Of a DNA stretch of 37,430 nt, positions 1 to 36,730 are shown piece after piece (the stretch's first letter is position 1; each line of letters begins with the position of its first letter). The stretch lies in the IMG/VR virus record IMGVR_UViG_2585427768_000010; one strand, given 5' to 3'. A model generated the notes under the pieces. That model was not told where the DNA came from, did not search any database, and was given only the letters and a program-made list of their open reading frames with translations. This DNA comes from a virus (Duplodnaviria; Heunggongvirae; Uroviricota; Caudoviricetes). The position numbers and the translations under genes are program-made.

Positions 1-1002
1 TTACCCTCTATTGTCAAAAGGGTTCAATTCAACAGCAGCCTCTAAATGACCTGGAGCAAAATGCGCATAACGCATAGTCATTTTTATATCGCTATGCCCC
101 AGTATTTTTTGCAACACAAGAATATTTCCGCCCCGCATCATAAAATGACTGGCAAACGTGTGACGTAGCACATGAGTTAATTGCCCATCAGGAAGCTCGA
201 TCTTCGCTCTCTTAATTGCAGCGTCAAAAGCCTCATAACATGGTGAAAATAGCGCTCCTCGTTTTTTAGGAAGCATAGCCTGCAATTGAGGTGAAATCGG
301 TACAGTGCGGTTCTTCTTTCCTTTAGTTTTAACAAATGTGATTCGACCGGGCAGTACTTGAGATTGCTTTAATCCTTCTGCTTCACTCCACCGAGCACCC
401 GTCGCAAGCCCAATACGGACAACAACCCCCAAATCTTTATTCCGTGACTCATCACACGCAATCAGAAGGCGTTCAATCTCATCTACATACAGAAACGCCA
501 GTTCCTTTTCTTCCTCACGAAACTTGCGAATACCAGTCAGGGGGTTTTCACCAGACCACTCCCCAAGGCGCTTCAGTTCGGCAAAAACAGCATGTAGATA
601 TGACTGCTCGCGATTAACGGTTGCTTCACTAAGTTTTTTCTTCCCCTTGGGATTCCATTCTCCTGATAGCCTTCTTTCCCGATAAGTAGCAAACATATTT
701 TTGTCAAACTGAGAAGCAAATGGATCTCCCAGCCTGGAACAAATCGCCTCAAGTTTGACTTTGCGCTCTGCACCAGAGGACAAGGTTTTACCGTACATCT
801 CAAACCAACGAGCAATCAACTCAGAAAGACGAGGACCAGAACCATCTTGAAACTCGTCTCCAACTCTACTATTCATTAAACGGCGCTCATAAGAGAGCGC
901 CTCACTTTTTGTCGCAAACTGTTTACGAATGCGTTTTCCCGATGCCCCGTAGGGATAACATTCGCAAAGCCATTTACCTGATGGAATCTTACGAACCGAC
1001 AT
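1..1002 (-). CDS. int: Tyrosine integrase, P2 Int-like (333 aa)
   Basis: Translation shares P2 Int blocks GKRIRKQF, TGARWSEA, VTFVKTKGKKNRTVPIS, HVLRHTFASHFMMRGG, LQKILGH, RYAHFAP; stop codon sits at window positions 1-3. Confidence 0.9.
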   Translation of the reverse strand: MSVRKIPSGKWLCECYPYGASGKRIRKQFATKSEALSYERRLMNSRVGDEFQDGSGPRLSELIARWFEMYGKTLSSGAERKVKLEAICSRLGDPFASQFDKNMFATYRERRLSGEWNPKGKKKLSEATVNREQSYLHAVFAELKRLGEWSGENPLTGIRKFREEEKELAFLYVDEIERLLIACDESRNKDLGVVVRIGLATGARWSEAEGLKQSQVLPGRITFVKTKGKKNRTVPISPQLQAMLPKKRGALFSPCYEAFDAAIKRAKIELPDGQLTHVLRHTFASHFMMRGGNILVLQKILGHSDIKMTMRYAHFAPGHLEAAVELNPFDNRG

Positions 1003-1007
1003 TTTAG

Positions 1008-1355
1008 TTACTTATCACATAAATCAAATGCAGCCTTAGTGACATCCCCCAGACTCTTTTTTAACCCTGGGGCGGCATCATTATCTAGCCAAAATGGATT
1101 ATTGTTATCTAACGGTAACGCACCAAATGTTTTACCTTTTATTCGAGCCAAACCTGTAAGTGCATATAACTTATTATCGTCAAAATTCATCACATAAGGA
1201 TTACCATCAAGACACTGTAATTGAACCTCATCAGTATTAAATGGCCATACCCCATTGAAACTCTCACGTTCAATAGTTTTAAAAGGCATTGCGACGGCGG
1301 AAAAAGAAAACATAGATAAAAAAGTAACTAATAGTTGAACCTTTTTTACTTTCAT
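1008..1355 (-). CDS. Secreted protein resembling the YebY/DUF2511 periplasmic family (115 aa, signal peptide)
   Basis: N-terminal signal peptide MKVKKVQLLVTFLSMFSFSAVA; remembered YebY-like pattern W.FN..EV.L.C..GN.YV.N, DNNNPF, final LC; GAGGT Shine-Dalgarno upstream; co-oriented with repressor and int. Confidence 0.55.
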   Translation of the reverse strand: MKVKKVQLLVTFLSMFSFSAVAMPFKTIERESFNGVWPFNTDEVQLQCLDGNPYVMNFDDNKLYALTGLARIKGKTFGALPLDNNNPFWLDNDAAPGLKKSLGDVTKAAFDLCDK

Positions 1356-1384
1356 ATCATTACCTCAATTTAGCTCAAGTAAGA

Positions 1385-2035
1385 TTACAAATTAAAAAAT
1401 GCCCTAGAAATGACACCACCTACCAAAACCCCTACGCAGATAAAGAATATTATTTCTTTTGGATAAAGTCGGATTAATTCTGAAGCACGAAGTCGGACTT
1501 CTGGTAAGGTCGAACTCTCTGTGTGGCTTGATGCCGATTGTTGCTCTAACCACGACAATGCAGACTGTAACTGAGAACGAGTAAGATCGTTTAAACGTCC
1601 TGTACCGAAATTGATATGGCAATACCGCAGAAGTTTTTGTCGAAGTCCACAGTCTTCACTGTTACGTAGTAATAAACTTACAAGAGCCTTACAGGCATCA
1701 TGATCTTTACATCGCTCAAGCATTGCATGCAGAAAACTCTCCGCTGTTTTATATTGATTTACTGTCATATCATCAATACCAGTTACACCAATCTCCGCAT
1801 GTACTTTTTGCCAAATAATAAACGCTTCAGTATTGCTAGCTTCTGCAATAGCAGCAACCAAGCTATTTAGCTCCTTACGCTGAGCCTTAAGCAAAGGGCG
1901 ATCGTCATCATCATTATTCGAAGGGATTGCGATATTGACGGTCTGAGAACCATCATATCGCTCTATCTGAATATTCTTTTCGTGAAAATCACGCCCAGCA
2001 ACGCGATTGTTTGAACCGTTTGAGTTGACGGCCAT
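1385..2035 (-). CDS. Hypothetical protein with C-terminal hydrophobic anchor (216 aa)
   Basis: ORF with GGGAGGTG Shine-Dalgarno; C-terminal hydrophobic segment IIFFICVGVLVGGVISRAFF; N-terminal NNRVAGRDFHE motif also found at the C-terminus of the upstream repressor. Confidence 0.55.
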   Translation of the reverse strand: MAVNSNGSNNRVAGRDFHEKNIQIERYDGSQTVNIAIPSNNDDDDRPLLKAQRKELNSLVAAIAEASNTEAFIIWQKVHAEIGVTGIDDMTVNQYKTAESFLHAMLERCKDHDACKALVSLLLRNSEDCGLRQKLLRYCHINFGTGRLNDLTRSQLQSALSWLEQQSASSHTESSTLPEVRLRASELIRLYPKEIIFFICVGVLVGGVISRAFFNL

Positions 2036-2050
2036 GTCACCTCCCTACTA

Positions 2051-2455
2051 TCACCTACCCTTAGTTTCGTTATAGTCACGACCAGCGATACGGTTATTAC
2101 CACCAGAAATATTTAACTCACGTCCTGATGGCTGAGTTTCCTTTTCACTGATCGCACCTTTTAAAGCCCCAATCACCGCATTTTTCACATCTAACGAAGC
2201 TGCTCGAAAGCGAGTAATCAACTCCTGCTCATCATCGTTATAAGTTTCAGGTGAGTGAATTCCCAACACAACATACTGAACATCAAGGCCAAAACGAGAC
2301 AGCGCTGCCAAATACGCAGCATCAGGAAAGCTATCTCCTTTCTCATATCTAAGCTGAGTTAGCTTTTTGACTCCACCAATGTCGCTCATGGCAACTTGAC
2401 TAAGTCCCAATCTTTCCCTTTCCTCACGCAACCGCTGACCAATATCATTTTTCAT
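2051..2455 (-). CDS. XRE-family helix-turn-helix immunity repressor (C/CI analogue, 134 aa)
   Basis: N-terminal HTH (QRLREERERLGLSQVAMSDIGGVKKLTQLRYEKG); positioned divergently from the early operon and upstream of int as in P2 C. Confidence 0.7.
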   Translation of the reverse strand: MKNDIGQRLREERERLGLSQVAMSDIGGVKKLTQLRYEKGDSFPDAAYLAALSRFGLDVQYVVLGIHSPETYNDDEQELITRFRAASLDVKNAVIGALKGAISEKETQPSGRELNISGGNNRIAGRDYNETKGR

Positions 2456-2464
2456 ACAAAAACC

Positions 2465-2494
2465 TTGACAGGTATCTTTTTTGATACCAAAATG
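2465..2494 (+). promoter_or_regulatory. Candidate early promoter with embedded operator palindrome
   Basis: TTGACA at 2465-2470 followed directly by perfect inverted repeat GGTATC-N6-GATACC (2471-2488) in the repressor/early-operon divergent intergenic region. Confidence 0.35.
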
Positions 2495-2530
2495 ATTTCA
2501 CGAGCTATTAGATGATCACAATATACCACT

Positions 2531-2737
2531 ATGAAACAAGTTCTTCACGATACCAGATCACGCATTCCGCGTAACACCGCCACAGGTCCAAGACTGGCAC
2601 TTCGGCTGTCCCTCGAGGAGCGAGCCGTCATTGATGAAATGGCAGCTAAAGAACAACGCTCATCCTCTAACATGGCGCGCATGATCTTCCTTCGCGGCCT
2701 AGAGCTAACCCAGAAAGAACAAAACAAATCTTCCTGA
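2531..2737 (+). CDS. Small putative ribbon-helix-helix-like regulator (68 aa), first gene of early operon
   Basis: ORF; segment RLSLEERAVIDEMAAKEQRSSSNMARMIFLRGLE resembles RHH DNA-binding proteins; function inferred only. Confidence 0.4.
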   Translation: MKQVLHDTRSRIPRNTATGPRLALRLSLEERAVIDEMAAKEQRSSSNMARMIFLRGLELTQKEQNKSS

Positions 2738-2753
2738 TCAGGAGGCTAGTGGG

Positions 2754-2957
2754 ATGTCAGGTATAACCATCAATATCAATGTGAATGCCCCCTATGTATC
2801 CCTGCAGAAATATGCAGAGATAACAGGTATCCCTCTTAATACATGCAAAAAGATGTTGGCTGACGGTCGAATTATTATCCGACCCAAACGCGCCAAAATG
2901 GAAAAGCCTGAAGTAAACCTTGTGGCGATGTTAAAAGACGCTTTGGCTAACAGCTAA
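2754..2957 (+). CDS. Cox/Apl/AlpA-like small HTH protein (67 aa), putative excision/transcription regulator
   Basis: GGAGG Shine-Dalgarno; HTH-like YAEITGIPLNTCKKMLADGRI similar in pattern to P2 Cox (FAKLIGKSTGAVRRMIDKGKLPVI). Confidence 0.45.
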   Translation: MSGITININVNAPYVSLQKYAEITGIPLNTCKKMLADGRIIIRPKRAKMEKPEVNLVAMLKDALANS

Positions 2958-2978
2958 AACAATGAACAGAGCACCATC

Positions 2979-3329
2979 ATGAAAAAAAACGCTAATAATC
3001 CATACTCCAAATTTCGTAATGGCGTAGAACGCCATGTACACCACGTCGCTACCAGTGCATCACGTAGTAACAGTCGCTATAACCTGAACGAGACGCACGC
3101 AACACCGGATGGCCACGCTGTAAAACAAATCGGCGAGCATGCCTGGCTGATTGAGAAAGCTGGAATCGTGGTCCACAAATGCCCACGCAATCCGTTTACC
3201 GGAAACCGCATTTTTGCATTGAACTGCGGCGACAATCACTTCGGGCAGGATTTCACATTATACGAAGCACTTCGCACGGTTGATCGTCTGCTTCGCGGGC
3301 AAAGTTTTATTAAACAGGCTGATTTATAA
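2979..3329 (+). CDS. Hypothetical early protein (116 aa)
   Basis: ORF in early operon, co-oriented and tightly spaced. Confidence 0.5.
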   Translation: MKKNANNPYSKFRNGVERHVHHVATSASRSNSRYNLNETHATPDGHAVKQIGEHAWLIEKAGIVVHKCPRNPFTGNRIFALNCGDNHFGQDFTLYEALRTVDRLLRGQSFIKQADL

Positions 3330-3339
3330 CAGGTGCTTT

Positions 3340-3618
3340 ATGACCAAAGAGCATGCACAAGGTGTATTTATCCGTTTTATTGATTTTCGCGGTGAACTGT
3401 TATTACGCGCATCAGCCATTGACGGAGTTGTTCCATCCGAAAAAAACGCAGCTACTTACGTTTATCTGAACGGTACGCGCCTGACTGTGGAGCTTCCGTA
3501 CCAGACCGTACGAGAAATCATTAGCGAAGCTGAAAAGGCACGTCAGGTTAATGGCGATGAACCCTATATCGAAATTATTTGTATGGATTCAGAAGCTGAA
3601 ATTCAGAAAGCAGATTAA
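3340..3618 (+). CDS. Hypothetical early protein (92 aa from ATG 3340)
   Basis: ORF; the internal ATG at 3340 avoids overlap with the upstream gene. Confidence 0.45.
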   Translation: MTKEHAQGVFIRFIDFRGELLLRASAIDGVVPSEKNAATYVYLNGTRLTVELPYQTVREIISEAEKARQVNGDEPYIEIICMDSEAEIQKAD

Positions 3619-3629
3619 AGGGCGTTGTG

Positions 3630-3872
3630 ATGGGCAAAGAATATAAAACTCTCATTAACAAAGCACTTGAGCGTTTTTATTTTCGCTTAAGTGCATCAGG
3701 CGCTCATGCTGAACGTGCGGCCCGTGACTCATTGACCAGAGCAATCCGAAGTCTGTATGACGTGGCTTTTTACGCTGATGATCTGGATGCACTTAACGAA
3801 CTTTCCGAGCTGATCTATGCCGCAGAATGCGGGGAACATATTGAACCGTATAAGCTGGGAAATATCGCATGA
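3630..3872 (+). CDS. Hypothetical early protein (80 aa)
   Basis: ORF with ATG at 3630. Confidence 0.45.
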   Translation: MGKEYKTLINKALERFYFRLSASGAHAERAARDSLTRAIRSLYDVAFYADDLDALNELSELIYAAECGEHIEPYKLGNIA

Positions 3873-3982
3873 GTATATTTATCTCATGGCTTGTTCTGAT
3901 TATTTCGGTGGTCTGCGCCATTGGGATTATGCGAATTATTAATTCAGTAAAAAAGATTGAACGCTTTTTCACTGAAGAATAA
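3869..3982 (+). CDS. Small hydrophobic peptide (37 aa, MSIFISWLVLIISVVCAIGIMRIINSVKKIERFFTEE)
   Basis: Hand-translated; ATGA start/stop overlap with upstream gene; one predicted transmembrane helix; below the 60-aa cut-off of the supplied ORF track. Confidence 0.3.
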   Translation: MSIFISWLVLIISVVCAIGIMRIINSVKKIERFFTEE

Positions 3983-4068
3983 CCGCGCAAATAAGACCCC
4001 AGGTTAAATAAGAAAATGTGAAAACAATCCGCATTCGCGGAGGTATTCGCACACGCCAAGGAGGCGTA

Positions 4069-4272
4069 ATGGCAATTAAGCATTTTCCCGTCGTTCGTTT
4101 CACCTCCAAAGGACGTGAATACGAAGTTGACGAACGCCTGATTACCACAATCGACAAACACCGTTCAGAAAAGGATGCACATCACATCTATCTCACTGAC
4201 GGCACTTACTTTTGCGCCACCAACGTGGTGCAGGTAAATCTTATCAGACAGGTACAGGAGTCACGCAGATGA
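4069..4272 (+). CDS. Hypothetical early protein (67 aa from ATG 4069)
   Basis: AAGGAGG Shine-Dalgarno at 4055-4061 precedes ATG 4069. Confidence 0.45.
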   Translation: MAIKHFPVVRFTSKGREYEVDERLITTIDKHRSEKDAHHIYLTDGTYFCATNVVQVNLIRQVQESRR

Positions 4273-4514
4273 CCATTCTGGACTACATCGCTGCCAATCC
4301 GGGTTGTAGCGGTGGAGAAATCGCCGCAGCACTGAATACACCAACCACAACCATTAATGCGGAGCTACGCCGTCTCTGGCGCAGCGGTTCAGTCATAAGA
4401 AAAGAGCGCAAAACAGGCGGTCGCTTTTCTTATCAGGTAAACCCGATGCCGTTTGGGTGTAGCAACCCACTAACCCAGATGTTCAACCAGCTACTGAGGG
4501 AAATCAGAGCATGA
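4269..4514 (+). CDS. Putative winged-helix DNA-binding protein (81 aa)
   Basis: ATGA overlap with upstream gene; sequence MTILDYIAANPGCSGGEIAAALNTPTTTINAELRRLWRSGSV has HTH character. Confidence 0.45.
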   Translation: MTILDYIAANPGCSGGEIAAALNTPTTTINAELRRLWRSGSVIRKERKTGGRFSYQVNPMPFGCSNPLTQMFNQLLREIRA

Positions 4515-4655
4515 GCACCTCCAACTGCCGGAAACCACGTCGGGCTTCAGCAGCTCATCCGGCAGCAAAACAAACTCCATTAATTCCTGTTCCGGGTCTT
4601 TCCTGCACCTTGTGGCGGGAGGCCTTCGCACATCTGTAACAAGAGGATTGCCGCA

Positions 4656-5021
4656 ATGATTCTCGCCAACGACTTTCTTGAATACCTGCTCAACACAGAG
4701 CGTGATCTTGCCGTTCGCGTGCGTGAACGTTATGACATGTACCTGAAATCCCAGCTTGTACCGCAGCTCGCTGACGGAAAGATTGTTATTGATGGTCGCT
4801 ACATGATTGACAGCCACGAGGGAAATTACAGGCTTTACCGCATTGAAGGTGGCACCCCGTCCGTTATTGGCATTTACCAGCGCCCATCCTCTGCAATCGT
4901 CAATGTGATTGCCGACAGCATCCGCATCACACATCGCCATGCCGACACAGAAGACACCGTGCTGGAAATTCAGCGGCTGGCTACAGTCTGCCGCGACACC
5001 CTGAATGGCATGACGAAGTAA
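4656..5021 (+). CDS. Hypothetical early protein (121 aa) directly upstream of A
   Basis: AAGAGGA Shine-Dalgarno; occupies the position of P2 B-region genes. Confidence 0.5.
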   Translation: MILANDFLEYLLNTERDLAVRVRERYDMYLKSQLVPQLADGKIVIDGRYMIDSHEGNYRLYRIEGGTPSVIGIYQRPSSAIVNVIADSIRITHRHADTEDTVLEIQRLATVCRDTLNGMTK

Positions 5022-5027
5022 ATCACT

Positions 5028-7850
5028 ATGACGGCAGAGTACATCAGGGACTGGCAACAACCGCGCCACGCAGTGGGGCGTGAAGGAACGGGGATCCCCG
5101 CTCCTGAATCCGCGCTTTCCTCCTGGCTGGATGCCTACCGGGCAGAGAACGAGCGCCGCCAGGAAATGGCTGATGCGGCGTTCTCCGCCACGCCGCTGGG
5201 CAACCTGATTAATAAAAGCCTAGACGCACAGGAAAAACAGGACAAAACAATCACACTGGCAGGAGACGCCAGAAAACAGGCACGCGGCGCGGTAGATGAG
5301 GCCATGGCCTCACTGCGCCTGCTGCCGTCCTATCTGCGCGATCCGCTTATTCGCCACCTCTCCTTCCTGCGCAAAAAACAGGAAGCCGATCGTCAGCAAG
5401 GAAAAAACGCCAGGCAGGCAGAACGCTATGCGCGTGGGACCCTGCGCAAAATATTCGAACGTCTGGAGCGCACCGATCACCGCTGGCTGACATCGGGTTA
5501 TCGCTCCCTTGCCGGACGTGAACGCCTGGACGATTTGATTTCCCTGCCGCAACTCAACAAACACCAGATACAGACGCTGGCCACCATGACGGCGGCGATG
5601 TTCAGCAGCACCTTCGAAAAACTCTGCGATGGTTTTGGCGCGACTGATGGCGAGCTGACCATGGATGTAACGCTGAAGGCGTATCAGATGCTGGCCCGCA
5701 TGGCGTTACACTTACACGCCATGCCTCCGCATTATGACGCACTGACAACAGACAAAGACCGGAGGCACGAACCGGACACAGAACTGCTGCCGGGCGCAAT
5801 CCTTCGCCTGACCTGTGCGGAATGGTGGAAACGCAAACTGTGGCTGTTACGTTGCGAGTGGAGAGAAGAACAACTCCGCGCCGCCTGTCTAGTTTCCAGA
5901 AAAACATCGCCCTATCTGAGCCAGGACGCGTTAAGCGAGTTTCGCGCACAGCGCGAGAAAACACGCGATTTCCTGAAAAGTTTCATGCTGGAAAATGAAG
6001 ACGGGTTCACGATTGATCTCGAGACGGTGTATTACGCGGGAGTAAGTAACCCGGTTCACCGTAAGGCAGAAATGATGGCCACCATGAAGGGGCTGGAACT
6101 TCTGGCCGAAGCCCGTGGCGACAAAGCGGTGTTTCTGACTGTCACCTGCCCGTCAAAATACCACGCCACAACGGAGAACGGTCATCCGAATCCCAAATGG
6201 AACGGGGCCACAATGCGCGACTCCAGCGATTACCTGGTTAACACGTTTTTTGCGGCGGTCCGCAAAAAACTGAACCGCGACGACCTGCGCTGGTATGGCA
6301 TCCGCACGGTGGAGCCTCATCATGACGGCACCGTGCACTGGCATATGATGGTCTTTGCACATCCGGAAGAAATCGACACCATTGTGTCCCATACCCGCGA
6401 TATTGCCATTCAGGAAGACCGCCACGAGCTGGGCAATGATATTACTCCGCGCTTTAAGGTGGAGTATGTCGACGGCTCAAAAGGCACGCCAACCAGCTAC
6501 ATCGCCACCTACATCGGAAAGAACCTGGACAGCCGCGCCGTGGATGGCATCGACCCGAAAACGGACAAGCCACGCGTGGACCACGAAACCGGAAAATCAA
6601 TGGCCGAGAGCGTGGAACGCGCCATCGGCTGGGCGCGTCTTCACCGCGTCCGCCAGTTCCAGTTCTTTGGTATCCCCTCCCGTCAGGTATGGCGTGAACT
6701 CCGCCGCCTTGCCAGTCAGATGGCCCGCAACCCGGAAGGTCCACAACGTCTGGAAAATGACGCAATGGATGCGGTACTCGCTGCCGCTGATGCCGGGTGT
6801 TTTGCCACCTACATTGAGAAACAGGGTGGCGTACTTGTTCCACGCAAAGACTACCTGATTCGCACCGCCTACGACCTCGCAGAAGAGCTGAACGATTACG
6901 GCGAGCAAAGCGTACAGATTTACGGGATCTGGTCGCCACAAATCGGGGAATCTTCCCGCGTGTGCACGCACCCGGATAACTGGAAGCTGGTAAGACGTAA
7001 ACCGGAAGCGGAAGACAGCGCCCGCGAAAATGGTTTTGACCTTCAGGGCGGCCCTGCCGCCCCTTGGACTCGTGGCAATAACTGTCCCCGTGTACAGGAA
7101 ACGGACAACAACGGGACAGAACAGCCGGAAGAACGGCCAGCACCGTGGCCGCAGCTCCCTGACGGCGTTGAAGTGAACGAATGGATGCGCTCACTGAAAC
7201 GGCACGAACGCCGGGCGCTGATGCGTTCGCTTCGTGACAAACAGGCAAAAAACAGCAGTGATGAAATGCAGAGCTGGACACAGAGCCGCAAACAGCAGCG
7301 GCCTTTGCCTGATAACCACGAATTACTCGCTAAAGAATGGCGGGAGTCTGCTGAATCTCTCGGCCTGCATATCGGTGAACAGCAGATGCAGCACCTGTTA
7401 CGGGGCGGCAGTCTGTACGTTGACGGCAGCATCATTGCACCGCAGGGATTTGAAATTGTACGCAAACCGGATACCCGACCGGACAGCCGGATCACGCAGC
7501 TCTGGCAGCGCCTGAGCCGTAACCACGGCGTAAGCAGCACGGAGATCCGCCATAACCCGGTCGCCAGCTATCTGGAACAGCTGGGGGCATCAGACCCCGA
7601 AGCCGCCGCACGCCTGGCATCCACACTTCAGCAAGACCAGAACACCATGAAAACACCCGTTACCGTGCTTTCTGACATGCTGCGCGCCATCCGCGACGCA
7701 GAGCACGCACAGAGAATCAGTGAAACCACTGAACGCGCCCGCCGCAAAGCAGACCTGCTGCGAGGTGGCCTGACCAGTGGAAACAAAAAACAGACAGAAA
7801 CGGGATTCACAAATCCCGTAAATGAGCAAAAAACGCGCCGCGATATATGA
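5028..7850 (+). CDS. A: Replication initiation protein A (rolling-circle endonuclease, 940 aa)
   Basis: HxH metal motif (VHWHMMVFAHPEE) and tandem-tyrosine rolling-circle motif (SYIATYIGKN) as in P2 gpA; position after early operon. Confidence 0.85.
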   Translation: MTAEYIRDWQQPRHAVGREGTGIPAPESALSSWLDAYRAENERRQEMADAAFSATPLGNLINKSLDAQEKQDKTITLAGDARKQARGAVDEAMASLRLLPSYLRDPLIRHLSFLRKKQEADRQQGKNARQAERYARGTLRKIFERLERTDHRWLTSGYRSLAGRERLDDLISLPQLNKHQIQTLATMTAAMFSSTFEKLCDGFGATDGELTMDVTLKAYQMLARMALHLHAMPPHYDALTTDKDRRHEPDTELLPGAILRLTCAEWWKRKLWLLRCEWREEQLRAACLVSRKTSPYLSQDALSEFRAQREKTRDFLKSFMLENEDGFTIDLETVYYAGVSNPVHRKAEMMATMKGLELLAEARGDKAVFLTVTCPSKYHATTENGHPNPKWNGATMRDSSDYLVNTFFAAVRKKLNRDDLRWYGIRTVEPHHDGTVHWHMMVFAHPEEIDTIVSHTRDIAIQEDRHELGNDITPRFKVEYVDGSKGTPTSYIATYIGKNLDSRAVDGIDPKTDKPRVDHETGKSMAESVERAIGWARLHRVRQFQFFGIPSRQVWRELRRLASQMARNPEGPQRLENDAMDAVLAAADAGCFATYIEKQGGVLVPRKDYLIRTAYDLAEELNDYGEQSVQIYGIWSPQIGESSRVCTHPDNWKLVRRKPEAEDSARENGFDLQGGPAAPWTRGNNCPRVQETDNNGTEQPEERPAPWPQLPDGVEVNEWMRSLKRHERRALMRSLRDKQAKNSSDEMQSWTQSRKQQRPLPDNHELLAKEWRESAESLGLHIGEQQMQHLLRGGSLYVDGSIIAPQGFEIVRKPDTRPDSRITQLWQRLSRNHGVSSTEIRHNPVASYLEQLGASDPEAAARLASTLQQDQNTMKTPVTVLSDMLRAIRDAEHAQRISETTERARRKADLLRGGLTSGNKKQTETGFTNPVNEQKTRRDI

Positions 7851-7898
7851 AGCGCGCATAAAACAGGCAAAAACGGGATTTCAGAATCCCGTAAACGA
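7798..7898. repeat. Two direct copies of a 28-bp hairpin-containing motif (AAACGGGATT-N5-AATCCCGTAAA)
   Basis: Copy 1 at 7798-7825 (inside the 3' end of A), copy 2 at 7871-7898; each is a 7-bp stem with 5-nt loop. Confidence 0.6.
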
Positions 7899-7926
7899 TT
7901 AATTAATCAACATAAGGAAAAGCGAC

Positions 7927-8328
7927 ATGAAAATTTGTATCGATGACGGCTCCACCAACATCAAGCTGGCATGGACTGAGAACGGCGAACGCCGCAACGC
8001 CATCAGCCCGAACAGCTTCAAGTCGGAATGGTCTGCGCCGTTCGGTGGCACGCAGCCCGCGAACTACATGCTTGATGGCGTGCGCTATGGTTTTGATCCG
8101 GTCAGCGATCGCTTTGTCCAGACAACTGACACGCAATACCAGTACAGCGATGTGAATGTCATTGCCATTCATCACGCGCTGGTCAAATCAGGCATCACGC
8201 CACAGGAGGTGGATGTGGTTGTCACCCTGCCACTGAGCGAGTATTTCGACACAAACGCACAGCCGGACATAGCCAACATCAACCGCAAAAAAAGCCCAGG
8301 ATTCCCGGGGCGGTTCAGAGGAGAGTGA
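7927..8328 (+). pseudogene. ParM/StbA-like actin-type ATPase, N-terminal fragment only (133 aa)
   Basis: Translation aligns colinearly with remembered plasmid R1 ParM residues 1 to about 125 (IDDGSTNIKL, SPNSFK, QYSDVNV, HHAL, TLPLSEY, NINRKK) then ends after 9 unrelated residues. Confidence 0.55.
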
Positions 8329-8330
8329 GA

Positions 8331-8822
8331 ATGCAAATTTCACCGGTTACTCTTCGTGTTGCGAAGGCGTTTATATCCAGACATCACCGACACAATAAAC
8401 CCCCGGTGGGGCATAAATTCAGCATTGGTCTGAGAAATGATGCCGGAGAATTGATAGGTGTGGCGACAGCCGGTAGACCTGTTGCACGACATTTGGACGA
8501 TGGATTAACGCTTGAAGTAAATCGCACATGTACCACAGGAGAACGCAACGCTAACAGCGCACTTTATGGTGCTGTCTGGCGGGCAGCAAAGGCTATGGGT
8601 TATCAACGTTGTATTACGTACACCCAGGCAGATGAATCAGGAGCATCTCTCCGCGCAGCTGGTTTTGTTCGTGTGAAAGAGCTTCCTCCAAGAAAAAGCT
8701 GGGCGGAATCAAGCGTCGCCCTGCGGAGTAAACGCGATCCGGTCGGAAACGGTGGTGTTCCTCGTGTGCTCTGGGAAATCAGGAGAATGAGTACCACTGG
8801 CATTCGCATCAAAGGAGAGTGA
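8331..8822 (+). CDS. Hypothetical protein, possibly GNAT-fold acetyltransferase-like (163 aa)
   Basis: AGGAGAG Shine-Dalgarno; weak GNAT-like pattern (GERNANSALYGAVWRAAKAMGYQRCITYT...ASLRAAGFVRV); fold assignment tentative. Confidence 0.45.
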   Translation: MQISPVTLRVAKAFISRHHRHNKPPVGHKFSIGLRNDAGELIGVATAGRPVARHLDDGLTLEVNRTCTTGERNANSALYGAVWRAAKAMGYQRCITYTQADESGASLRAAGFVRVKELPPRKSWAESSVALRSKRDPVGNGGVPRVLWEIRRMSTTGIRIKGE

Positions 8823-9087
8823 TATGGCAACTTTGACAAAAAAAGAACAAGCATGGTTGAGCGAATTACAGGACGTTCTTGATCGCTGCCCATCACCGAA
8901 AAAAATTGGTTTTTACACCATTGGCGATAAAAGCATTTACCTGTATGACCTGCGCCGCATGGATGAAATCATGGAGGCTCTTGATAATCGTTCGTCAATG
9001 GATTGGTGTGTTGCTGTCCATGATATGAATGCAGGGTTTGATGAAAAGATTTTGTTCCCCTCATCAGTTGAAAGCACAGCAGGATAA
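8808..9087 (+). repeat. Direct repeat copy 1 (about 280 bp, carries the 87-aa ORF)
   Basis: Near-identical to 9495-9773 with a single synonymous difference noted. Confidence 0.9.
8824..9087 (+). CDS. Hypothetical protein (87 aa), copy 1
   Basis: ORF MATLTKKEQAWLSELQDVLDRCPSPKK...; Shine-Dalgarno AAAGGAGAG. Confidence 0.5.
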   Translation: MATLTKKEQAWLSELQDVLDRCPSPKKIGFYTIGDKSIYLYDLRRMDEIMEALDNRSSMDWCVAVHDMNAGFDEKILFPSSVESTAG

Positions 9088-9097
9088 GGACTAACAC

Positions 9098-9508
9098 ATG
9101 ACCACTATTACCAAAGAACGTATTGAATTGTTCATTAAAAATCCGCTTGAAAACGGGCTTACTCGTGACGAACAAATGGAACTGGCACGAATTGCACTGG
9201 CATCGCTGGAAGCAGAGGCAGTTATGTTCTGTATATCAGGACAAAATGTAGATTCAGAAGAACATGTATCAACCAGCAAAGCGGTTGTTGATGCCTGGGT
9301 TGAAGAATGGAATCAGGTTGACGGAAGTCCTGGCGAACCACTGTACAAAACTATGCCACTCTACTATCACGCTGCCTTGCCAGCGCCGGTAGTGCCGGAT
9401 GAAATGTATTGGCAGGATGCGCCAGTTGAAGGCAGCAGCAAAGCGGCTGCATACGCTACAGGCTGGAACGCCTGCCGCGCCGCTATGCTTCATGGGAAAG
9501 GAGAGTGA
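9098..9508 (+). CDS. Hypothetical protein (136 aa)
   Basis: ORF flanked on both sides by the 280-bp direct repeat. Confidence 0.5.
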   Translation: MTTITKERIELFIKNPLENGLTRDEQMELARIALASLEAEAVMFCISGQNVDSEEHVSTSKAVVDAWVEEWNQVDGSPGEPLYKTMPLYYHAALPAPVVPDEMYWQDAPVEGSSKAAAYATGWNACRAAMLHGKGE

Positions 9509-9773
9509 TATGGCAACTTTGACAAAAAAAGAACAAGCATGGTTGAGCGAATTACAGGACGTTCTTGATCGCTGTCCATCACCGAAAAAAATTGGTTTTT
9601 ACACCATTGGCGATAAAAGCATTTACCTGTATGACCTGCGCCGCATGGATGAAATCATGGAGGCTCTTGATAATCGTTCGTCAATGGATTGGTGTGTTGC
9701 TGTCCATGATATGAATGCAGGGTTTGATGAAAAGATTTTGTTCCCCTCATCAGTTGAAAGCACAGCAGGATAA
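9495..9773 (+). repeat. Direct repeat copy 2 (about 280 bp)
   Basis: Near-identical to 8808-9087. Confidence 0.9.
9511..9773 (+). CDS. Hypothetical protein (87 aa), copy 2, identical to the 8824-9087 product
   Basis: Identical translation; true start is the ATG at 9511, not the longer track ORF 9399-9773. Confidence 0.5.
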
Positions 9774-9807
9774 GGACCCAGCAAATATACACAACCTATA
9801 AAACACT

Positions 9808-9834
9808 AAAGCGCCTCAGGGGCGCTTTTTGTTT
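9808..9834 (+). terminator. Rho-independent terminator after the hotspot genes
   Basis: AGCGCC-TCAG-GGCGCT stem-loop followed by TTTTTGTTT. Confidence 0.6.
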
Positions 9835-9866: not shown

Positions 9867-10242
9867 TGAACGACTTTTTACCCTTCCGGCCCGCATGGCG
9901 GCTGGATCCGTCAAGGATCCGTGCGTGCACAAAAAAACGCGCTTTTTCTGCGCGCAGGTGACGGGGGAACAGCCCGCGTTTCAGGGGGTAAATAGCATTC
10001 CCTGAACGATGTCGCAGAGACACAACAGAATGGCCATATTTCTCACGCTGAGCATGAAAAAGGCGTGAGGGCTTTTGATTTGATGGGGTGAAAGGTAAGG
10101 CCGTCAAAATCGCACTGAGGCAGCGAGAACATACAGTCAACGCGGTGGAATTGCGTAAGAGTCTGACCGTCGATGGTGGCGATAAACTGGAAGGCGTCGT
10201 GAAATTATCTGATTGATACAGGAGCTGGAGAGCCGGGGCATA

Positions 10243-10271
10243 AATTTTTTATGCCCCGGCGAAGCAGCAGA
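10243..10271. other. Perfect 13-bp inverted repeat with 3-nt spacer (GCCGGGGCATAAA ttt TTTATGCCCCGGC) in ORF-free region
   Basis: Seen directly; lies in the ORF-poor 9.78-10.33 kb interval where the cos site is expected. Confidence 0.5.
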
Positions 10272-10359
10272 CAAGCGAAGCGCGTCAGCGATACGGCACC
10301 TTGCCGACCATACTTCATAAGTGCAAAATACGAGCAAAGAAATCAATGGAGGCTGTCTT

Positions 10360-10884
10360 ATGGTCATTAATTACAAGCAGTTAAGAGAAAAACGGGAGCA
10401 GGTAAAGGAGAGCTTTCGCCGCAATGAAGATCTGACCCCGCTTGTACGCCTTGCCCAGGGCATTGTTGATGCTTATGAAATCTCGCTGGAGCTGCCATCA
10501 CAGACCTGGACAGATAGCGACGGTAATCGCCAGCATTACGTTTCATGCGGACTGGAAGCAGCCGAAGGATTTCGCAGAATGCCTTTATCCCAGATCCCTG
10601 CCGCTACCCCCAAAGCATGGGGCAGCAATGATGAGCGAAAACTGACTTTTAGTATTGAAACGGTGGTTGACGACACACCTGGCGAAGTCGCGTTCGTACA
10701 CACTCCTGTTTCGATCGCAATGTATAACGATGAAATACAGGTTCGCGTTAATAATAATATCGTGCCACTTAAAGAAGGTAATTCACCCTACACCACCGTT
10801 TGTGAAGCCATTCAATATTACGTTCTCTCTGAAATTGATAATCTCAAGCCTGACGGCACCCAGAAAATGGTTCAACTCTGGTAA
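10360..10884 (+). CDS. Hypothetical protein (174 aa from ATG 10360)
   Basis: GGAGG Shine-Dalgarno before ATG 10360; convergent with Q and sharing a terminator. Confidence 0.5.
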   Translation: MVINYKQLREKREQVKESFRRNEDLTPLVRLAQGIVDAYEISLELPSQTWTDSDGNRQHYVSCGLEAAEGFRRMPLSQIPAATPKAWGSNDERKLTFSIETVVDDTPGEVAFVHTPVSIAMYNDEIQVRVNNNIVPLKEGNSPYTTVCEAIQYYVLSEIDNLKPDGTQKMVQLW

Positions 10885-10889
10885 AAAGG

Positions 10890-10915
10890 ACAGCCCCATC
10901 ACGGGGCTGTTTTTT
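10890..10915. terminator. Bidirectional rho-independent terminator between the 174-aa gene and Q
   Basis: CAGCCCC-ATCA-CGGGGCTG hairpin flanked by A-run and T-run. Confidence 0.6.
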
Positions 10916-11945
10916 CATCAAGAAGAGCATAAGAGTTAAAACGGATCACCTCTTCGCCAAGCCAGTCATTGATGTGCTTCATAGCCTCCATGACGGGCAT
11001 CAGCTCGTTAATTGCGTAAACCCGCGCTGCCTTCTCCACATCGCCAAACGCACTTTTTTCGCCCGGCATCGCCCCCATCAGTTGCGGCGGAACGCGGTGC
11101 GCAGCCAGCACATCATCACGGGATGCCGCCTTAACATTCATGAATTCATCTTTTGCGGTGATCTGCTGGAACGGCAAAATTTGCACCCCCTCTTTGCCCC
11201 CGTTGGGCGCATGAATGAGCACGTTTTTAAACGCACCACCACCACGTGCCCCCTGTAGCGTTTCTTTCAGGGAGTCCATGCTTTCGCGGTTTACCTGCGC
11301 TGCACCGATGTAGATGATGCACCCGGCGTGGGATCCGTTGTCGTAGTACAGTTTTCTGAACATGTCCGCCGAATGAGAAAGGCTGGCCGAGAGTAATGCG
11401 CCAAGATATTCCGGCATGCCGTAGATTTCCTGGTTAATATCCGGATTCATCAGGTGGCACACTTTGCCAGGACGAAACTGAAACGCGTCCTTGCCATCCT
11501 GCACATACCACCATGATTCAAGATCGCTTCCGCGTCGCATGTATTTCGCCAGGGCGTGCCGTAATTTAAGCGGTTCGCCGAGCATATTGCTTCGAAGCTC
11601 AAGGAATGCGTTACCGAACACAAACCAGTCCAGCGCCAGCGCCGAGAAATCCTGCCGGGAAAGCAGCGGGTGCGGGATGTAGCAACCGAGTAATACATTG
11701 CGCTTAAAGTAAAGCGCAGACTGATGCCAGGACGTTTGCCGGGCAGCTCTTGCCAGACCGTACCAGTCCACCGGGGTTTCATACCACCGCCCGTTATCAG
11801 CACAGTACATATTGTCCAGCAGGTCATGCCCGGTCAGGCGATAAGGACCATCAAATGTGAATGCACTGAGCGATGATTCTTTCCTGAGCGCATCAGCGAG
11901 ATCAATGCGTGAACTCATGCGCACTTTTTTATTTTTTCTGCTCAT
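10899..11945 (-). CDS. Q: Portal protein (P2 gpQ-like, 348 aa)
   Basis: Size and position downstream of terminase P on minus strand; ATGA overlap with P stop. Confidence 0.85.
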   Translation of the reverse strand: MSRKNKKVRMSSRIDLADALRKESSLSAFTFDGPYRLTGHDLLDNMYCADNGRWYETPVDWYGLARAARQTSWHQSALYFKRNVLLGCYIPHPLLSRQDFSALALDWFVFGNAFLELRSNMLGEPLKLRHALAKYMRRGSDLESWWYVQDGKDAFQFRPGKVCHLMNPDINQEIYGMPEYLGALLSASLSHSADMFRKLYYDNGSHAGCIIYIGAAQVNRESMDSLKETLQGARGGGAFKNVLIHAPNGGKEGVQILPFQQITAKDEFMNVKAASRDDVLAAHRVPPQLMGAMPGEKSAFGDVEKAARVYAINELMPVMEAMKHINDWLGEEVIRFNSYALLDEKTAP

Positions 11946-13696
11946 CAGAACTCCATAACTGTGAAACGCTCGTTTTCTCCTTCGCCGCCAATTGGTTCGT
12001 TAATGACAGCAAGCATGGTTGCCCACGCAAGGTCGCCGTGGCTGATCCCCCTCGCGCGGTCCGTTTCGTAAGTGATAAAGCCGCCCGGTGTTTTCACCTT
12101 ACGCACGGCGTTAAAGGCTGCGACCAGCTCGCGTTCGGCGCGATCGTATTCCCACCGCCCGGCACGCATTATTTGCAGCATTTTCAGTACCAGCGACCGT
12201 TTTGATGACAGCGTGAAGGTGTACGGAATAGCAGCAGGGAAAAACCGTTTCACTATCTGATAAACAGCCTCCCCGTTCCCGCCCGTCACATCAATGCCGA
12301 TGTGTTCCACGTTGTAGCGACACGTGAACTCTTCAATGACTCTGGCCTGTTCTTCAAACTCCAGCCCCTGAACGCGTCGCGTCTCCACCGTTCGAAAACG
12401 GCCACCAGGAACAGACGGAGGAACCACCACGGACACAGCGCCGCTGTCGCCGTTGCCACTGCTGCCGTTTGCGTCATACCCAATCCATACCGGACGATTC
12501 CCCATCGGGCGGGGAGCAAAAGGTTTCCAGTCTTTCCAGTCGTCGTATCCGTCAACACCACAGCCAATCAGGATATTCAGGTTAAATGCCGATTCCCCTT
12601 CGCGGACAAACTCACACATATAGAGATTGAGGAACTCGTCTTCGGTGTTTTCATCACGAATTTCATCAATATCGGTGTGTTTCCAGCCGTGATTAACCAC
12701 ATCTTCCAGCGTGACAATTTGCCGCCACGTCCGGTCAGGGCAGATAAGCCCGTTATGCAGCGTTTTCCAGTCCACAGAAAAACGCTGGCGTTTATGCGTG
12801 GCCTTTTTCTCGTTCCAGCGGTCGCCGTTCCAGTAGGCGTATGCCTCGTGCGTTTCGGTGGATGGCGTGGAGAAGTAGGTGCGCCGCAGTCCGCTGAGGG
12901 TTGCCATAGCGCCAGCCACCTTGCGCAGTTCAGCAAAGCGACTGACCCAGAAAAATTCATCAAAATAAAAATTGCCCGTATAGGACTGCGCCGACGCAGC
13001 AGAAGTGCCGAGAAAATGCAGCTCTGCGCCGTTGGAGAGGATGATTTTATCGCCCCCTTTCAGCTCCACATCAACTTCAGCCGCGGCCTTCTGAATAATG
13101 CTTTTAAACTGGAACGCCTGACGACGCGACGCAGACAAAAAAATCTGGTTACGCTGGTAAGGTTGCGCCACATCGTCACGCAGCGCCATCAGCAGTGCTT
13201 CCTGTGCAAAATACCAGGTCGCGCCAATCTGTCGGGATTTCAGGATCATCCTGTTACGTATCCCGGCTTCCCTGCAAAGGGTCAGGGAGTCAAACCAGCC
13301 CCGCTGATGCCACTCCAGCCTGCTGATGATTTTTTCCCGCAGTGCGACAATCTGTTCCGGCGTGAAATGATTTTTGAGTTTTTTCGCCCGGCCTTTCTTT
13401 CCTGTGGCCGTCGCATCCGGCTGGCCATCATGCATTTTTTTAAGCTGCCGGGTCAGCAGGTCTATTTCCTTAAAGTCACCGCCTGTTTTATTCTGTTTTT
13501 CAGTAAGCTGGATGAGGCGCGCATCGATGGACTGCGTGACACGCTGCACGGGTGGCGTTTCATCCCACTGGTCGCGTTTTTTCCACGCATAAATCGTGTT
13601 CGGGTTTATTCCCATCAGACGTGATATTTCTGCGGGCGGATAACCCTGCCAGTAAAGTTGCCGCGCACGCTGGCGCACAAAAGCGTCCTGAATCAT
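11945..13696 (-). CDS. P: Terminase large (ATPase) subunit (P2 gpP-like, 583 aa)
   Basis: Size close to P2 gpP and divergent from the capsid operon as in P2. Confidence 0.85.
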   Translation of the reverse strand: MIQDAFVRQRARQLYWQGYPPAEISRLMGINPNTIYAWKKRDQWDETPPVQRVTQSIDARLIQLTEKQNKTGGDFKEIDLLTRQLKKMHDGQPDATATGKKGRAKKLKNHFTPEQIVALREKIISRLEWHQRGWFDSLTLCREAGIRNRMILKSRQIGATWYFAQEALLMALRDDVAQPYQRNQIFLSASRRQAFQFKSIIQKAAAEVDVELKGGDKIILSNGAELHFLGTSAASAQSYTGNFYFDEFFWVSRFAELRKVAGAMATLSGLRRTYFSTPSTETHEAYAYWNGDRWNEKKATHKRQRFSVDWKTLHNGLICPDRTWRQIVTLEDVVNHGWKHTDIDEIRDENTEDEFLNLYMCEFVREGESAFNLNILIGCGVDGYDDWKDWKPFAPRPMGNRPVWIGYDANGSSGNGDSGAVSVVVPPSVPGGRFRTVETRRVQGLEFEEQARVIEEFTCRYNVEHIGIDVTGGNGEAVYQIVKRFFPAAIPYTFTLSSKRSLVLKMLQIMRAGRWEYDRAERELVAAFNAVRKVKTPGGFITYETDRARGISHGDLAWATMLAVINEPIGGEGENERFTVMEF

Positions 13697-36427: not shown

Positions 36428-36514
36428 TGGTACCCGGAGCGGGACTTGAACCCGCACAGCGCGAACGCCGAGGGATTTTAAATCCCTTGTGTCTACCGAT
36501 TCCACCATCCGGGC
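36428..36514 (-). tRNA. leuZ: tRNA-Leu (anticodon TAA), 87 nt
   Basis: Reverse complement matches remembered E. coli leuZ sequence (GCCCGGATGGTGGAATCGGTAGACACAAGGGATTTAAAATCCC...CCA). Confidence 0.9.
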
Positions 36515-36526
36515 TCGGGAAGAAAG

Positions 36527-36600
36527 TGGAGGCGCGTTCCGGAGTCGAACCGGACTAGACGGATTTGCAATCCGCTACATAACCGCTTTGTTAACGCGCC
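36527..36600 (-). tRNA. cysT: tRNA-Cys (anticodon GCA), 74 nt
   Basis: Reverse complement matches remembered E. coli cysT (GGCGCGTTAACAAAGCGGTTATGTAGCGGATTGCAAATCCG...). Confidence 0.9.
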
Positions 36601-36654
36601 AAATTCTTCAGGCCTTTCAGCCAGACATCCGCTTGAGGCCGATGTCTTTTAAAC

Positions 36655-36730
<76 letters not shown>

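Follow-up and report, generated by a model that had tools for sequence, protein, structure and literature searches.

A recurrent stop/Shine-Dalgarno/start junction as an apparent marker of small-gene gain, loss and swapping in Escherichia coli phages

We analysed the complete 37,430-base sequence of the IMG/VR virus record IMGVR_UViG_2585427768_000010 (hereafter the window), a P2-like prophage in which the borders of an array of small genes share a 10-mer, AGGAGAGTGA. This 10-mer is the core of a stop/Shine-Dalgarno (SD)/start junction, here named J, which recurs at many gene junctions of Escherichia coli phages and, as judged from the sequences of natural variants, marks the gain, loss and swap of small genes. 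We consider it likely that J is the conserved 3' end of ead/Ea22-like genes combined with a ribosome-binding site (RBS), that is, a junction for translational coupling at which crossovers by short homology would also take place. A sequence-only reading of the window had described the motif as a standard linker between swappable cassettes; the feature is real, and that idea proved largely right.

The junction in the P2-like hotspot

The array sits in the variable A/Q hotspot of P2-like phages, which extends from replication gene A to portal gene Q (Rousset et al. 2022, PMC9122126; also PMC13586616), because it is flanked by the replication gene A (gpA, 5028-7850; Pfam Phage_GPA match, 3.9e-131) on one side and by the portal gene (10899-11945) on the other. 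The portal and terminase genes together occupy 10899-13696 on the minus strand, and their identity follows the annotation of relatives. The order of the array is parM'::insertion sequence (IS) scar-J-XF1762-J-87aa-136aa-J-87aa. AGGAGAGTGA occurs exactly three times in the window, at 8319-8328, 8813-8822 and 9499-9508, always on the plus strand, against a chance expectation of about 0.05 copies; none of 100 shuffles contained three or more, and allowing one mismatch adds only two sites (2249 and 8781). At each copy the upstream frame reads GGA GAG TGA (open reading frames (ORFs) 7927-8328, 8331-8822 and 9098-9508), and the next ATG follows 2, 1 and 1 nt after the 10-mer, at 8331, 8824 and 9511 respectively. 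Frame and spacing bear out, at all three copies, the earlier statement that the 10-mer supplies Gly-Glu-stop to the upstream gene and the SD to the next ATG. The first junction, J1 (TCAGAGGAGAGTGAGAATG; 8315-8333, plus strand), comprises the stop of the parM'/IS-scar frame together with the SD and ATG of the XF1762 gene; J2 is an extended form of 32 nt (CTGGCATTCGCATCAAAGGAGAGTGATATGGC; 8797-8828, plus strand) with its core at 8813-8822; and J3 (GGAAAGGAGAGTGATATG; 9494-9513, plus strand) holds the 10-mer at 9499-9508.

The description of three consecutive junctions sharing the 10-mer stands as far as the three exact copies go, but the 87-aa/136-aa junction that lies between them (9087/9098, TAAGGACTAACACATG) is without the motif, and the second and third copies stem from one duplication. 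These two copies form the left edge of a single 281-nt direct repeat (copy A, 8811-9091; copy B, 9497-9777; both on the plus strand), so that the window contains only two independent occurrences. The repeat copies differ once, by a synonymous TGC versus TGT, and the 87-aa gene is duplicated. Nor do three unrelated proteins end in GE, as had been supposed: J2 and J3 are one duplicated sequence, J1 closes a parM pseudogene joined to an IS scar, and the 136-aa protein belongs to an ead/Ea22-related group, the motif being its native 3' end. The only clearly foreign gene of the array that acquired the GE tail is that of the XF1762 family (8331-8822, plus strand; 163 aa; NCBIfam XF1762_fam, 5e-61, residues 3-136; PHROG 1384, Mom-like). 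We regard its tail as acquired because the family model stops at residue 136 of 163, while the last 26 nt of the gene match the 3' ends of ead/Ea22 genes.

The fit of J to the ribosome is close. Aligned with the 3' end of 16S rRNA (AUCACCUCCUU) it reads AAGGAG-A-GUGAU, an almost full complement, for which duplexes of -15.1 and -14.1 kcal/mol are predicted as against about -6 at two neighbouring starts. The ATG follows the AAGGAG core SD at 6-7 nt, and the stop of the upstream gene precedes this start by 1-2 nt. This strong, near-complete SD within the last codons of the upstream gene, with the stop adjoining the start, would cause any gene placed behind it to be translated. While the geometry is a direct observation, the translation of the downstream gene by coupling is its probable consequence. 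J could thereby act as a compact natural stop/SD/start module that would express whatever gene follows.

Recurrence, origin and proposed exchange at the junction

For the P2-like relatives we used 80 loci (1.12 Mb, both strands), fetched with the C-terminal part of gpA, in which protein anchors delimited the hotspot in 63 loci (nucleotide anchors in only 11). When the 10-mer was tabulated there together with its flanking cassettes, all 18 copies proved to lie on the coding strand, in the hotspot and at gene junctions; in every one the frame that the TGA closes is open over 118 codons or more, and an ORF of 87 aa or more begins 1-2 nt further on. The motif is present in 12 of 62 delimited hotspots. 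It always follows a c3-type gene (c3 being our name for a cluster of hotspot genes related to ead/Ea22, 104-144 aa long), a ParM' fusion or one of the cassettes inserted at that place, namely the 87-aa gene, XF1762 or a 95-aa gene. Among lambdoid-type loci (n = 57, 544 kb), 69 of 70 copies are stop/start junctions. Rather than occurring at a similar frequency elsewhere with no enrichment at boundaries, the motif is thus concentrated at junctions in both sets.

A scan of viral contigs with the 14-mer AGGAGAGTGATATG gave at least 125 matches, and more than 60 enterobacterial-type contigs carry it. Among the matches listed, at least 73 junctions have ORFs of 40 aa or more on both sides and combine 35 upstream with 34 downstream tight protein clusters; the 87-aa gene follows at least 8 upstream clusters, and one ead/Ea22-like cluster precedes at least 10 different genes. 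A conservative count of ...KGE-stop junctions among the same listed matches, made with loose clustering and with the shared tails removed, still yields 62 junctions with 6 upstream and 16 downstream superfamilies in 20 combinations, the upstream partners being ead/Ea22-like (40), a 93-aa protein (12), XF1762 (6) and three minor superfamilies. Where the partners are unrelated, exact identity typically stops 2 nt before and 0-2 nt after the 14-mer. A separate scan with AGGAGAGTGAGAATG recovered mostly unrelated RBS-like matches from other taxa, about 25 of its matches belonging to this system. In viral contigs a further upstream end, GCCATGATCGTCTACCTGATGATGA-AGGAGAGTGAGAATG, is likewise constant and has at least seven different sequences downstream of it; it may represent a second linker-like junction in a different phage group.

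Examination of deposited phages with megablast, using 8331-9100 as the query, revealed many that match only query positions ~467-498, that is, the 32 nt of J2 at 8797-8828. This island is 100% identical in the Stx phages 1717 (Stx2), VT1-Sakai, YYZ-2008 and 2851, in Shigella phage POCJ13 and in others, while P7 and HK022 are near-identical and the same up to the ATG. In the named phages its flanks match neither XF1762 nor the 87-aa gene; instead, the island is the end of an annotated ead/Ea22-like gene, and a different gene starts 1 nt later. HK022 p35, Stx2-1717 gp07 and P7 upf88.3 all end in ...GGCATTCGCATCAAAGGAGAGTGA. Given that an annotated ead/Ea22-like gene ends with the island each time, J is best understood as the native 3' end of this mosaic family (Ea22 genes are mosaic; PMC10834534). 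Its consensus is (CTGGCATTCGCATC)AAAGGAGAGTGA(T or GA)ATG, with ead/Ea22-like proteins ending in ...GIRIKGE-stop.

Complete E. coli genomes provide a natural series of variants around the XF1762 cassette, which measures 494 bp from junction to junction. The arrangement is ParM-ParR-c3(143 aa)-J-XF1762-J-87aa in L003, ParM-ParR-c3(144 aa)-J-87aa in L004, ParM'-scar-J-XF1762-J-87aa in L001 and ParM'-scar-J-87aa in L005 and L009. L001 and L005 share the unique IS scar, and their flanks are 99.8-99.9% and 99.7-100% identical to the window, respectively. They differ from each other by exactly the 494-bp cassette, with the breakpoint inside the 10-mer: the L005 sequence ...GGTTCAG-AGGAGAGTGA-TATGGC begins as the left side of J1 and, from within the 10-mer, continues as the right side of J2. 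The cassette is present or absent in three upstream contexts (ParM'-scar and two other upstream genes), and its length is always 494 bp. It has no terminal inverted repeats and there is no transposase between the direct repeats, the IS1203 scar lying outside it, to the left of J1; an origin of the direct repeats as the target-site duplication of an IS or transposon was rejected on these grounds.

The same genes occur in elements of other types. The XF1762-87aa module is also found in lambdoid prophages and in a 58-kb plasmid (L007), on which a 71-aa gene stands between XF1762 and the 87-aa gene with 23-nt copies of J (GCATCAAAGGAGAGTGATATGGC) on both sides. In lambdoid prophages the 87-aa gene follows the replication genes, with XF1762 (L008) or without it (L010); in L212 it lies in the exo-xis/early-left region beside xis and int and is preceded by a different 164-aa gene. 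Across the module (8331-9087; L006-L008), identity among P2-like hotspots, a lambdoid prophage and the 58-kb plasmid is 97-99.7%.

A patch of 10-32 nt of identity between many gene pairs would allow whole small genes to be inserted, deleted or swapped with their frames and expression intact, the likely agents being phage single-strand annealing proteins, RecA or replication slippage. J offers such a patch because the same 10-32 nt sits between many pairs of genes in lambdoid, P1-like and P2-like phages and in plasmids. [quoted passage not shown] The notion of a standard linker for cassette swapping thus draws support from the location of J at junctions only, from the many gene pairs that it joins and from presence/absence variants that end exactly at the motif. 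We infer its role in recombination from these natural variants, whose pattern is observed directly.

Several observations weigh against this role. Among loci with a c3 gene before J, those that have XF1762 differ from those that lack it in about 25 nt upstream of J as well, a distinct haplotype that travels along with the cassette, and some crossovers therefore probably fell in the longer homology of the c3 tail and not in the 10-mer. Unrelated partners often share only 16-18 nt, and L001 and L005 only 10 nt, which is below the MEPS; such events would therefore be rare or independent of RecA. The sampled loci are interrelated and the scans were conditioned on the motif, so that the counts above do not stand for independent events. 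Furthermore, in Leclercia, Klebsiella and Raoultella the homologues of the 87-aa gene (61-71% identity) have the SD-stop-start layout in different nucleotides, e.g. ...ATC AAG GGG GAG TAG; since distant genera retain the layout without the exact sequence, functional constraint alone can maintain the architecture. The Erwinia dacicola copy keeps AAAGGAGAGTGATCATG. On the sequences at hand, the exact form of J appears to be a marker of the E. coli/Shigella/Salmonella phage pool, a taxonomic range that is poorly sampled: a contig scan with the 87-aa protein gave 7 loci, of which 3 are gut metagenome-assembled genome contigs labelled Segatella/Collinsella and are likely mis-binned.

One alternative is that J is merely the conserved 3' end of ead/Ea22 genes and marks the edges of exchanges without promoting them, the joins being illegitimate and selection having kept those that fell at gene borders (Hendrix-type). 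That about two thirds of the junctions in the conservative count (among the matches listed) follow ead/Ea22-like genes, that the junction diverges as ordinary sequence in other genera and that the shared identity is often under the efficient pairing length all agree with it. However, unrelated upstream genes (XF1762 and the 93-aa and 69-71-aa proteins) share the same terminal nucleotides, J stands on both sides of cassettes, the endpoints of the L001/L005 indel are the two 10-mers themselves, and random joins would not rebuild the same 16-32 nt every time. We therefore regard this explanation as unlikely, though it deserves to be kept in mind. Convergent selection for an optimal coupling signal, with a near-ideal SD and a built-in stop but neither shared descent nor exchange, could also explain why J pairs almost completely with the 16S 3' end (about -15 kcal/mol) and why distant homologues keep the SD-stop-start layout with other sequences. 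Against this, the recurring form carries a specific extra A relative to the perfect SD form GGAGGTGAT, and the runs of identity extend over 28-32 nt, including codons that have no role in the SD. As the perfect form is used at other junctions of the same regions (e.g. in L010), the recurring form, one base longer, fits descent better than convergence, which appears quite improbable.

Cassette-like arrays with a repeated boundary also resemble integron arrays, and J might accordingly be imagined to be recognised by an enzyme dedicated to it, for instance a homing endonuclease or a site-specific recombinase of the integron kind. In the loci examined, however, cassette ends have no inverted repeats, and neither within the arrays nor next to them is there a gene for a recombinase or nuclease; the arrays moreover occur in very different elements; an integron-like origin was likewise rejected for the array of the window, whose genes (ParM', XF1762 and small unknowns) include no integrase. 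This makes a dedicated enzyme very hard to sustain. A local accident, with one duplication and one chance 10-mer of no wider meaning, would suit the location of copies 2 and 3 within one 281-nt repeat, but it is refuted by the strong enrichment at junctions and the many partners in relatives and retains virtually no credibility.

We thus favour the view of J as an ead/Ea22-derived coupling junction that doubles as a crossover point. A bolder form of it, which we put forward only tentatively and think rather doubtful, is that J is no passive remnant but is maintained as a recombinase-free 'universal adaptor' by which single small genes pass, in frame and ready to be expressed, among plasmids and phages of the lambdoid, P1-like and P2-like types, perhaps via excised J-bounded circles resembling the PeSL mini-circles of T4-type phages. 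If true, J would be a natural counterpart of recombineering arms and would provide a concrete route for the exchange of P2 hotspot genes with unrelated elements.

Other features of the hotspot

The 87-aa gene, the commonest downstream partner of J (PHROG 1714, function unknown), is present as copy 1 at 8824-9087 and as copy 2 at 9511-9773, the latter inside direct repeat copy B; both are on the plus strand. Between them lies the 136-aa gene (9098-9508, plus strand) of the ead/Ea22-related c3 group, whose PHROG matches are all of unknown function. From 9190 on it is 99.4% identical to the 144-aa c3 gene of L004, and its first 92 nt, along with its placement 10 nt after the 87-aa gene, correspond to a lambdoid prophage arrangement. 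In 686 records this adjacency of the 87-aa gene and the next gene is matched over at least 80% of the query; the prophages concerned have the 87-aa gene between an upstream gene ending in ...AAMLHGKGE-stop and a downstream gene beginning with MTTITKERI.... By this comparison, the 136-aa gene is a hybrid of the genes normally found downstream and upstream of the 87-aa gene. A crossover between the paralogues near a shared ...SLEAEAVMF... segment would give exactly 87aa-hybrid-J-87aa, and the third J would have arisen with this 686-bp duplication-like unit. As the product of recombination between modules, J3 is no independent junction; the identical ...CATGGGAAAGGAGAGTGATATG junction is found in L004, L034, L046, L051 and L149. 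Deletion across the 281-nt repeat would convert the window to the L001 type and a subsequent deletion across the 10-mer would give the L005 type, though these steps may also have run the other way. The arrangement of the window itself, with the extra 686-bp unit, was not found in the complete-genome collection searched. A viral contig of 9,087 bp (L132, IMGVR_UViG_2648501784_000016) is identical to positions 1-9087 of the window; its end coincides exactly with the stop of copy 1 of the 87-aa gene, as would be expected of a short-read assembly interrupted by the 281-nt repeat.

The first upstream ORF is no genuine protein, because a fragment of parM reads through an IS end-scar into the motif. 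The fragment is a 369-nt pseudogene of the parM 5' part (7927-8295, plus strand), the homology to the full-length parM of relatives ending at ~8292-8295: the Pfam StbA_N match of ORF 7927-8328 spans residues 1-123 of the 158-position profile, blastn against L003, L004 and L006 stops at 8292, and in L001 and L005 this stretch is a parM pseudogene without its C-terminus according to RefSeq. The adjoining 22 nt (CCAGGATTCCCGGGGCGGTTCA; 8296-8317, minus strand) are the scar of a terminal inverted repeat of the IS1203/IS629 type (IS3 family), with the outer end abutting the junction motif. The 22-mer (21/22 identical) recurs in other loci with one flank constant and one variable, and the 51-nt IS end has 16,596 occurrences in 2,938 E. 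coli genomes and adjoins a gene annotated as 'IS3-like element IS1203 family transposase', by which espY2 is interrupted. Looked for as the 3' end of a gene, this 22-nt filler had yielded no source before it proved to be an IS end. In L005 and L009 the 87-aa gene is fused to the scar and J with nothing in between. Genomes of the scar-bearing type are rare (12 of 5,426, of which 11 lack XF1762 and 1 has it). According to a recent survey, P2 hotspots contain almost no transposable elements (PMC13586616); the scar at 8296-8317 is the footprint of one.

Two further independent truncations of parM (L002; L140/L173) end at the junction or in the gene before it. In all, at least three independent deletions (window, L002, L140, L173) have removed parR together with the 3' part of parM and a portion of the gene that follows, and have left XF1762 and the 87-aa gene in place, which suggests that the partition module is repeatedly lost in integrated P2-like prophages. 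Just upstream of parM, two 42-nt direct repeats (7784-7825 and 7857-7898; ACGGGATT..AATCCCGT), each with a 20-nt palindrome (7800-7819 and 7873-7892), straddle the end of gene A; they may be a candidate centromere or operator of the ParMR system, whose parR is deleted in this prophage.

Downstream, an intrinsic-terminator-like hairpin with a T-run (9808-9828, plus strand) closes the small-gene array. The non-coding stretch between the array and ORF 10321-10884 contains a perfect 13-nt inverted repeat, GCCGGGGCATAAA/TTTATGCCCCGGC, with a 3-nt spacer (10232-10260). That ORF encodes 187 aa from a GTG at 10321, but the gene itself is one of 174 aa from the ATG at 10360 (PHROG 5091, function unknown; cluster c6), which adjoins the portal gene and is present in 11 of 63 related hotspots. 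Near the right end of the window, a cluster of tRNA-Leu(taa), tRNA-Cys(gca) and tRNA-Gly(gcc) genes (36428-36730, minus strand) is probably host DNA beside the prophage.

Comparison with known systems

The content of this hotspot differs from that described by Rousset and colleagues in that no recognised defence system is present, PADLOC matching none of its models to any gene of the array, and a piece of a lambdoid exo-xis-type small-gene array is found instead. How P2 hotspots exchange genes with other elements was left open by the recent survey (PMC13586616, 2026), and in an earlier one recent exchange between the lambda group and the P1-P2-Mu group was not observed (PMC3945230). The nearly identical DNA (~98-99%) that is common to P2-like hotspots, lambdoid prophages and plasmids here points to exchange of a kind unseen in that earlier survey.

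In its translational geometry J resembles ordinary coupled junctions, which likewise have the SD inside the upstream ORF and the stop beside the start; those, however, are specific to one gene pair, whereas J is the same sequence across many unrelated pairs. Integron cassettes (attC/IntI) also form arrays of promoterless small genes with a recurring boundary element and presence/absence variation, but the array with J has no integrase and no attC-type imperfect palindrome, and its boundary lies within coding sequence. Analogous to J are the PeSL regulatory cassettes of T4-type phages, where recombination between copies produces insertions, deletions and replacements (Arbiol et al. 2010, PMC2839356). 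Like J, the PeSL is a small expression signal that recurs, in hyperplastic regions, from one non-essential gene to the next; it combines a promoter and a terminator and thus acts in transcription, while J is a translational stop/SD/start element of 10-32 nt inside operons, and mini-circles have been demonstrated for PeSLs (PMC2839356), those bounded by J being hypothetical.

The question that J bears on is the old dispute on phage mosaicism, in which homologous exchange at short linkers is set against random illegitimate joins. De Paepe et al. detected homology traces next to only ~30% of mosaics and posed the question whether those of the others are too short to be seen (PMC3945230). On J this question is directly testable, because it is a sharply defined linker of 10-32 nt with many partners and near-isogenic natural variants; J is accordingly a test case in two respects, the linker model and the movement of genes between P2 hotspots and other elements. 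Text searches of the literature for AGGAGAGTGA and GGAGAGTGATATG returned only unrelated primer and vector matches and no paper naming the sequence, Clark 2001 lying outside their scope. We conclude that J is no new kind of system but an instance of the boundary sequences of phage mosaicism, whose features it shows: conservation among phages at the nucleotide level, location at gene borders and unrelated flanks that assort. In HK620, Clark et al. (2001) reportedly described seven boundary sequences in the metabolic domain. Short conserved boundary sequences have been proposed as foci of recombination (PMC3029335, citing Clark 2001 and Susskind & Botstein 1978). Boundary sequences so described agree with J in being short conserved border sequences with non-homologous flanks and a proposed focus of homologous recombination that assorts modules. 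They operate on the scale of functional modules of lambdoid phages, whereas J operates on that of single small genes, overlaps the stop, SD and start, and spans different phage types, namely lambdoid, P1-like (P7) and P2-like phages, as well as plasmids.

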